Assembly (NCBI RefSeq): GCF_002854065.1
Contig: NZ_CP024147.1
Strand: one strand, 5' to 3'
From: Escherichia coli
Lineage (GTDB): Bacteria > Pseudomonadota > Gammaproteobacteria > Enterobacterales > Enterobacteriaceae
Length of the DNA stretch: 64,000 nt
Both the position numbers and the translations under genes were made by a program. The notes under the pieces are model-generated. The model did not search any database. It saw only the letters and a list, made by a program, of their open reading frames with translations, and was not told the DNA's origin. This document shows positions 62,796 to 64,000 of the stretch, piece after piece; position 1 is the first letter of the stretch, and the number at the start of each line of letters is the position of its first letter.

Positions 62796-64000
62796 ATGCA
62801 AACGAGTGATACCCGCGCGTTACCGCTACTTTGCGCCCGCTCGGTTTATAAACAGTATTCAGGGGTTAATGTCCTGAAAGGCATCGATTTTACGTTGCAC
62901 CAGGGGGAGGTCCACGCCCTGTTCGGCGGCAATGGTGCCGGTAAATCGACGTTAATGAAGATTATTGCCGGTATTACCCCTGCTGATAGCGGTACGCTGG
63001 AGATTGGGGGCAACAACTACGTCAGATTAACGCCAGTTCATGCTCATCAGCTGGGTATTTATCTCGTTCCCCAGGAACCGCTGCTTTTCCCAAGCCTGTC
63101 GATAAAAGAAAACATCCTGTTTGGGCTGGCAAAAAAACAGCTCTCCATGCAGAAAATGAAGAACTTGCTGGCGGCGCTGGGCTGCCAGTTTGATCTGCAT
63201 AGTCTGGCAGGATCGCTGGATGTCGCCGATCGCCAAATGGTGGAAATCCTCCGCGGGCTGATGCGCGACTCGCGGATTCTGATCCTCGATGAACCTACCG
63301 CCTCGCTTACCCCTGCGGAAACCGAACGCTTGTTTAGTCGCTTGCAAGAGCTGCTTGCTACTGGCGTGGGTATTGTTTTTATCTCGCATAAGCTGCCGGA
63401 AATTCGCCAGATTGCCGATCGAATTAGCGTGATGCGCGACGGAACCATCGCCTTAAGCGGCAAAACCAGCGAACTGTCTACCGACGACATTATTCAGGCC
63501 ATCACCCCAGCGGTACGGGAAAATCGCTCTCTGCCAGCCAAAAATTATGGCTGGAGTTACCTGGCAACCGCCCACAACATGCCGCAGGAACGTCGGTGCT
63601 GACACTGGAAAATCTGACTGGCGAAGGTTTCAGGAATGTCAGCCTGACGCTAAATGCCGGAGAAATTCTGGGTCTGGCTGGGCTGGTGGGTGCCGGACGC
63701 ACAGAACTGGCCGAGACGCTCTATGGTCTACGTACTTTGCGTGGCGGACGCATTATGCTGAATGATAAAGAGATCAATAGATTATCCACTGGAGAACGTT
63801 TACTGCGCGGTCTGGTTTATCTGCCGGAAGATCGCCAGTCATCCGGACTGAATCTCGATGCTTCGCTGGCCTGGAACGTCTGCGCCCTTACTCATAACCT
63901 TCGTGGATTCTGGGCGAAAACCGCGAAAGATAATGCCACCCTGGAACGTTATCGTCGGGCGCTGAATATTAAATATAACCAACCGGAACAAGCTGCACGG
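62796..64000 (+). pseudogene. lsrA: AI-2 ABC importer ATPase with a -1 frameshift at an A4 run (63520..63523); continues to the window end in the shifted frame
   Basis: Frame 0 encodes the first NBD (Walker [10 protein letters not shown]) and stops at 63600..63602 after …[19 protein letters not shown]…*. The other frame from about 63521 reads [67 protein letters not shown]…, i.e. the second NBD. Confidence 0.8.

Follow-up and report, generated by a model that had tools for sequence, protein, structure and literature searches.

The 64,000-nt stretch of Escherichia coli DNA considered here (contig NZ_CP024147.1; hereafter, the window) ends inside lsrA, the gene for the ATPase of the AI-2 importer LsrACDB. 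On the other side of a divergent promoter region lie lsrR (61594-62547, minus strand) and lsrK (59923-61515, minus strand), both of which had been described as intact in the original prediction; this holds, as their products of 317 and 530 aa are of reference length (Table 2 of Brito et al., 2012; PMC3595036), and the window from 59479 to 64000 is 100% identical to DNA of strain CUWW06 in which the two genes are annotated as intact. The lsrR-lsrA promoter region (62548..62795) is also intact, with 1 mismatch in 248 nt against K-12 and none against CUWW06. In the identical alleles of CUWW06 and of a second strain, 100416, and in public contigs, lsrCDBFG are found downstream of lsrA, so the gene has the context expected of it: divergent lsrRK, then lsrA itself, then lsrCDBFG.

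The lsrA reading frame begins with the ATG at 62796 (plus strand) and, according to its translation, ends in a premature TGA at 63600-63602 (plus strand), reached in a shifted frame. As now encoded, the 5' part of the gene (62796..63602, plus strand, from the list of open reading frames) specifies 268 aa, made up of 242 native residues, within which the first nucleotide-binding domain is complete, and 26 that are out of frame. The remainder of the gene (63521..64000, plus strand), comprising the interdomain linker and the second nucleotide-binding domain, is in the -1 frame and has no stop codon up to the window end; this frame is open from 63428 through base 64000, and its translation contains GLVGAGRTE, the second-domain Walker A motif being located at 63680-63706 (plus strand, -1 frame). 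In the identical allele of CUWW06 the -1 frame continues to the normal lsrA stop, with the usual 7-nt overlap with lsrC. Thus, the two nucleotide-binding domains are not on one polypeptide, and it was correctly anticipated from the window that LsrA is cut off after the first of them.

The change of frame can be placed at a run of four As (63520..63523, plus strand; local sequence cggg-aaaa-tcgc), where intact alleles have five, so that codons 242-243 read GAA AAT instead of GAA AAA. Alignment to reference genes bears out the proposal that one A has been lost from this short run: K-12 lsrA has AAAAA at the equivalent of 63520-63523, and so has strain 88-3493, the closest intact allele, which is otherwise identical to the window over 142 aligned columns. 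No compensating indel accompanies this single indel relative to intact orthologues, a structure typical of a frameshift pseudogene. When one A is inserted at the run, a protein of 511 aa results, with the C-terminus ...EASC as in K-12 LsrA, from which it differs at 7 residues; it differs at 3 residues (L43F, I362V and F394Y) from the nearest intact allele. Since a single added base restores a normal LsrA, the 1-bp deletion is its sole disabling lesion. Comparison with the NCBIfam equivalog model for LsrA (NF011967, curated cut-off 586 bits) gives the same picture: the repaired protein scores 953.9 bits over model positions 1-510 and is the only form to match at full length, the 268-aa product scoring 448.7 bits (positions 1-258) and the second-domain piece 453.3 bits (positions 268-510), each below the cut-off. 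Taken at its sequence, then, the locus is lsrA by descent, with no intact LsrA encoded.

Two further features of the gene deserve mention. The substitution L43F (codon 43, 62922-62924) is specific to the lineage described below, being present neither in K-12 nor in the nearest intact allele, and is situated directly before the first-domain Walker A motif; it may be a change that followed inactivation or a neutral variant. Within the first nucleotide-binding domain there is also an in-frame run of seven As (63131-63137), which is unaltered, even though slippage should happen there more readily than at the A5 run that lost a base.

Lesions within homopolymers call for caution, these being the classic place for long-read indel errors, and a miscall of a true A5 run during sequencing or assembly would give exactly the pattern seen. 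We consider such an artefact very improbable. A 62-nt query spanning the site had matches in 4143 complete E. coli genomes, of which two were gapless; the other genomes among the matches listed all span 63 bases, corresponding to the in-frame A5 form. A 40-nt query that could seed only on the four-A form found the same two genomes out of 5426 complete ones, so reference lsrA genes do not generally share the frame structure of the window. The two strains are 100416 (NZ_CM128593.1; human stool, Gambia) and CUWW06 (NZ_CP182139.1; wastewater, Thailand), and in both of them lsrA carries the RefSeq/PGAP label 'frameshifted'. A miscall might be expected to be scattered over the 4143 genomes having the region, but only one near-clonal haplotype carries the allele. 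Moreover, at least 208 public contigs, originating from many independent runs and from several sources (NCBI, ENA, JGI, and the Logan assemblies of SRA data), encode the exact 268-aa product, and the run has four As in nine of nine other assemblies inspected, between which there are 0-4 SNPs in 6.8 kb. All seven public contigs that were fetched have four As, with 1-4 SNPs relative to CUWW06 over 6.8 kb. The longer A7 run in the same gene is intact, and no homopolymer indels separate two independent assemblies of the lineage over about 39 kb. Since four As recur in so many independent assemblies, the reservation that the missing base might be a sequencing error, attached to the original prediction, can be dropped.

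The relationships among these strains point the same way. In lsrA, 100416 and CUWW06 are 100% identical to the window over 1205 nt, and their 268-aa products are identical; over longer distances the window differs from CUWW06 at 0 of 4522 nt and from 100416 at 1 of 3246 nt, compared with 57 differing positions for the nearest intact strain. Across the approximately 39 kb in which the window and CUWW06 are collinear, there are 11 SNPs and one gap, which is at an IS1 junction. They differ also by whole mobile elements (IS1, transposon and prophage insertions), and because of this we regard them as separate isolates, each accurately assembled. None of the complete E. coli genomes has a collinear match to the last 12 kb of the window, which is why we take the window to represent a third isolate. 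No intact 511-aa LsrA of the four-A haplotype, whether from an ancestor or from a five-A revertant, is on record among some 15 billion proteins, although absence from a protein index is not proof of absence. In its reproducibility and its phylogenetic coherence, being limited to one near-clonal haplotype, the allele behaves as an inherited pseudogene would, and by these comparisons the deletion is a mutation that has been inherited and has become fixed in a small lineage.

Mobile elements are found beside lsrK. A complete Tn3-family transposon of 5640 bp (53840-59479), bounded by 38-bp terminal inverted repeats and by a direct duplication of TGTATT, lies 94 bp upstream of the start of an autotransporter gene and 444 bp beyond the lsrK stop. 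It contains a gene resembling those for methyl-accepting chemotaxis proteins (54029-55606, minus strand), a candidate resolvase gene, so called from its position (55916-56476), and a gene for a 988-aa transposase (56480-59446); this layout is like that of Tn1722. Similar DNA is annotated in other records as belonging to the TnAs1 family. The transposon is missing from both of the other four-A genomes. There are two copies of IS1 in the window (37530-38297 and 52454-53221, with target duplications of 8-9 bp), the second of which splits a large autotransporter gene of the ECSE_1600 family into two parts (47549-52420 and 53222-53746). Both insertions are absent from CUWW06, where an IS1 is found elsewhere, in the ydeQ/ydeR fimbrial cluster. 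A 28-bp segment (45639-45666, minus strand) exactly matches dif, the E. coli site at the replication terminus where chromosome dimers are resolved. At the corresponding junction CUWW06 has two tandem copies of a filamentous prophage of about 9.6 kb (with Zot-like, GspD-like and replication protein II/X genes), whereas the dif site of the window is empty, without a filamentous prophage. The window is thus set apart from 100416 and CUWW06 by its own IS1 and Tn1722-like insertions and by its empty dif site.

What might the truncation do to the importer? ABC proteins hydrolyse ATP at sites to which one domain contributes its Walker A motif and the other its signature motif. The first domain of LsrA has a canonical Walker A motif (GGNGAGKST, 62925..62951, plus strand), immediately preceded by the L43F substitution, and residues 1-242, as retained in the truncated product, also include Walker B (ILILDEPT) and the H-loop (FISHK), but at its signature-motif position (63216..63236, plus strand) is LDVADRQ, a degenerate form of LSGGQ. 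The sole canonical signature motif, LSGGNQQK (residues 404-411 of the full-length protein), is in the second domain and is lost here; that domain in turn has arginine instead of lysine in its Walker A motif (GAGRTE). Such a combination of one good and one degenerate ATP site is described as typical of fused RbsA-type ATPases (PMC11466899). A sequence search of the PDB for a solved structure of the LsrA/RbsA type gave only generic ABC-domain matches to eukaryotic transporters.

We therefore favour, with considerable confidence, the view that the window carries a genuine, vertically inherited loss-of-function frameshift in lsrA, in which an A5 run in the interdomain linker has become A4. The missing A was probably dropped by replication slippage, after which translation would stop 26 codons past the deletion, keeping the first domain and losing the second. 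Because the signature of the first domain is itself degenerate, the truncated LsrA would be unable to form a competent ATP site, either alone or paired with itself, and the LsrACDB importer would not be energised. There may be consequences for the genes downstream as well. The lsrC start is 7 nt inside the normal lsrA end, and translational coupling between the two genes would therefore be lost; in addition, if some 730 nt of mRNA upstream of lsrC are left untranslated, polarity may lower the expression of lsrCDBFG. With LsrK and LsrR intact, AI-2 would still be expected to enter slowly by a non-Lsr route and to be phosphorylated, and its clearance from the medium would come later and be less efficient. 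It had been claimed that AI-2 import would be lost. In so far as this refers to Lsr-dependent import, its loss is likely; total loss is an overstatement, as in published lsrA knockouts the uptake of AI-2 was slower but not abolished (PMC3595036), and residual slow uptake is to be expected here too.

The condition of the rest of the operon varies within the lineage. In most of the members inspected, lsrK, lsrR, lsrC, lsrD and lsrB are intact and the frame of the second domain is open, the frameshift being still the sole lesion. In a few, further damage is evident: in strain 100416, lsrK lacks 138 bp in frame (window 60619-60754 missing), the ATG start of lsrR has become AGG, and a deletion associated with IS1 extends from the autotransporter gene to 16 bp past lsrK, and in the SRA assembly SRR26276524 the lsrB start is changed from ATG to ATT. 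We would place the lineage, on the genomes available to us, at an early stage of operon decay, with one lesion in most members and more in a few. Among the unique coding SNPs in lsr genes of the lineage, 12 are nonsynonymous and 2 synonymous, but these counts were rejected as evidence about selection, because the look-up collapses places encoding identical proteins, which enriches for amino-acid changes, and because the lineage is too young for a dN/dS test.

The intactness of lsrKR and lsrCDB and the open second-domain frame in most members fit a recent null allele, but they would fit a functional split gene too, and there is a plausible restart codon exactly at the premature stop. The candidate restart (63586..63598, plus strand) consists of AGGA (63586-63589), a 6-nt spacer and a GTG (63596-63598) in the frame of the second domain. 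The GTG overlaps the stop (GTGCTGA) and is the sole start codon in that frame ahead of the second-domain Walker A motif; initiation there is predicted to give a stand-alone second domain of 244 aa, which might assemble together with the 268-aa protein on LsrCD, so that import would be kept or only weakened. The 244-aa open reading frame is predicted by gene callers in six of the seven public contigs that were fetched (the remaining one breaks off within it), and the two open reading frames jointly cover positions 1-258 and 268-510 of the LsrA model, with the linker alone missing. Were translation to restart there, two nucleotide-binding subunits would be made from the locus, as in ABC importers such as those with OppD/OppF and DppD/DppF, whose two ATPase subunits have a gene each. 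However, the opp and dpp genes have been separate since ancient times and have proper starts of their own, whereas in lsrA the split came about by accident, in a family in which the two domains are as a rule fused, and we found no precedent for a naturally split ATPase of the RbsA/LsrA type. The Shine-Dalgarno pairing at the candidate GTG is modest (-4.3 kcal/mol, against -8.6 at the lsrA start) and is equalled at 16% of all ATG/GTG sites of the window. Both the GTG and the AGGA are already present in the nearest intact allele, and their position is therefore a coincidence and not an adaptation. The secondary lesions in lsrB, lsrR and lsrK, found in two members of the lineage, suggest relaxed selection. 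On balance, a working split ATPase seems unlikely, though less so than the artefact discussed above. If it were nevertheless true, the lineage would be a natural experiment in which a fused ATPase of the RbsA/LsrA type is seen to tolerate splitting, and the intactness of the remaining operon in most members inspected would be explained.

Full-length LsrA might also be made in some cells or from some transcripts, either through programmed recoding (a -1 ribosomal frameshift or transcriptional slippage) or through a reversible switch, in the form of frequent phase variation between A4 and A5, as a -1 shift anywhere in 63428-63599 would give the full-length protein. We give this hardly any credence. 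The zone in which rescue could take place (63420-63602) is devoid of a slippery heptamer of the form X_XXY_YYZ, and its longest runs are of 4-5 bases; neither transcriptional slippage nor phase variation is efficient on runs as short as these. Intact orthologues have no need of such a device, the four-A frame structure is not conserved (as its rarity among complete genomes indicates), and a five-A revertant of the haplotype is absent from the protein records already mentioned.

Returning to the null allele that we prefer, it is of an ordinary and already known kind, a further instance of the documented decay of lsr. Brito et al. (2012; Genome Biol Evol 5:16, PMC3595036) inferred that E. coli has lost a working lsr operon on at least eight independent occasions; they attributed 6 of 34 lsr pseudogenes to indels of 1-2 bp and found insertion sequences flanking inactivated lsr operons only. 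In the enterotoxigenic (ETEC) strains E24377A and UMNK88 the transporter is broken while LsrK and LsrR work, and slower uptake of AI-2 was predicted for them; more generally, natural strains with an impaired transporter and a working kinase and repressor are expected to take up AI-2 at a lower rate, by a less efficient system (PMC3595036). The case described here concerns the same operon, the same species and the same process, and has its IS1 and Tn1722-like element beside lsrK, but the change from A5 to A4 at codons 242-243 belongs to a different, small lineage, and in most members of this lineage the frameshift is still the sole lesion. About 1233 of the 5426 complete E. coli genomes lack any match to lsrA.

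The 268-aa allele itself is already represented in RefSeq, UniRef and GenBank (in the last as proteins EZJ86540.1, KEO34657.1 and CAM6603504.1), and it is not the only truncated form of LsrA. A far commoner one (P0003), of 322 aa and found on at least 1000 contigs, including one of 5.47 Mb, results from a separate frameshift, after ...GAGRTELAE, in another E. coli lineage. Another (P0014; GDN59169.1) has lost one base from the A5 run that comes next in the linker (equivalent to 63540-63544) and so reaches the same TGA, again with a product of 268 aa; it is in a different lsrA haplotype and at another position, which marks it as an independent event, but it is known from a single contig, where a sequencing error is possible.

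Thus, although the frameshift is real and not a sequencing error, it fits the pattern of 'conserved signal production, labile signal reception' already documented for E. coli and its AI-2 quorum sensing. Poor scavenging of AI-2, together with continued production of it, is to be expected in this lineage, and this could slightly shift signal levels in mixed gut communities. With the frameshift as the only lesion in most members and others beginning to accumulate, the lineage may also be used to track the speed at which an operon is eroded after its first inactivating mutation.
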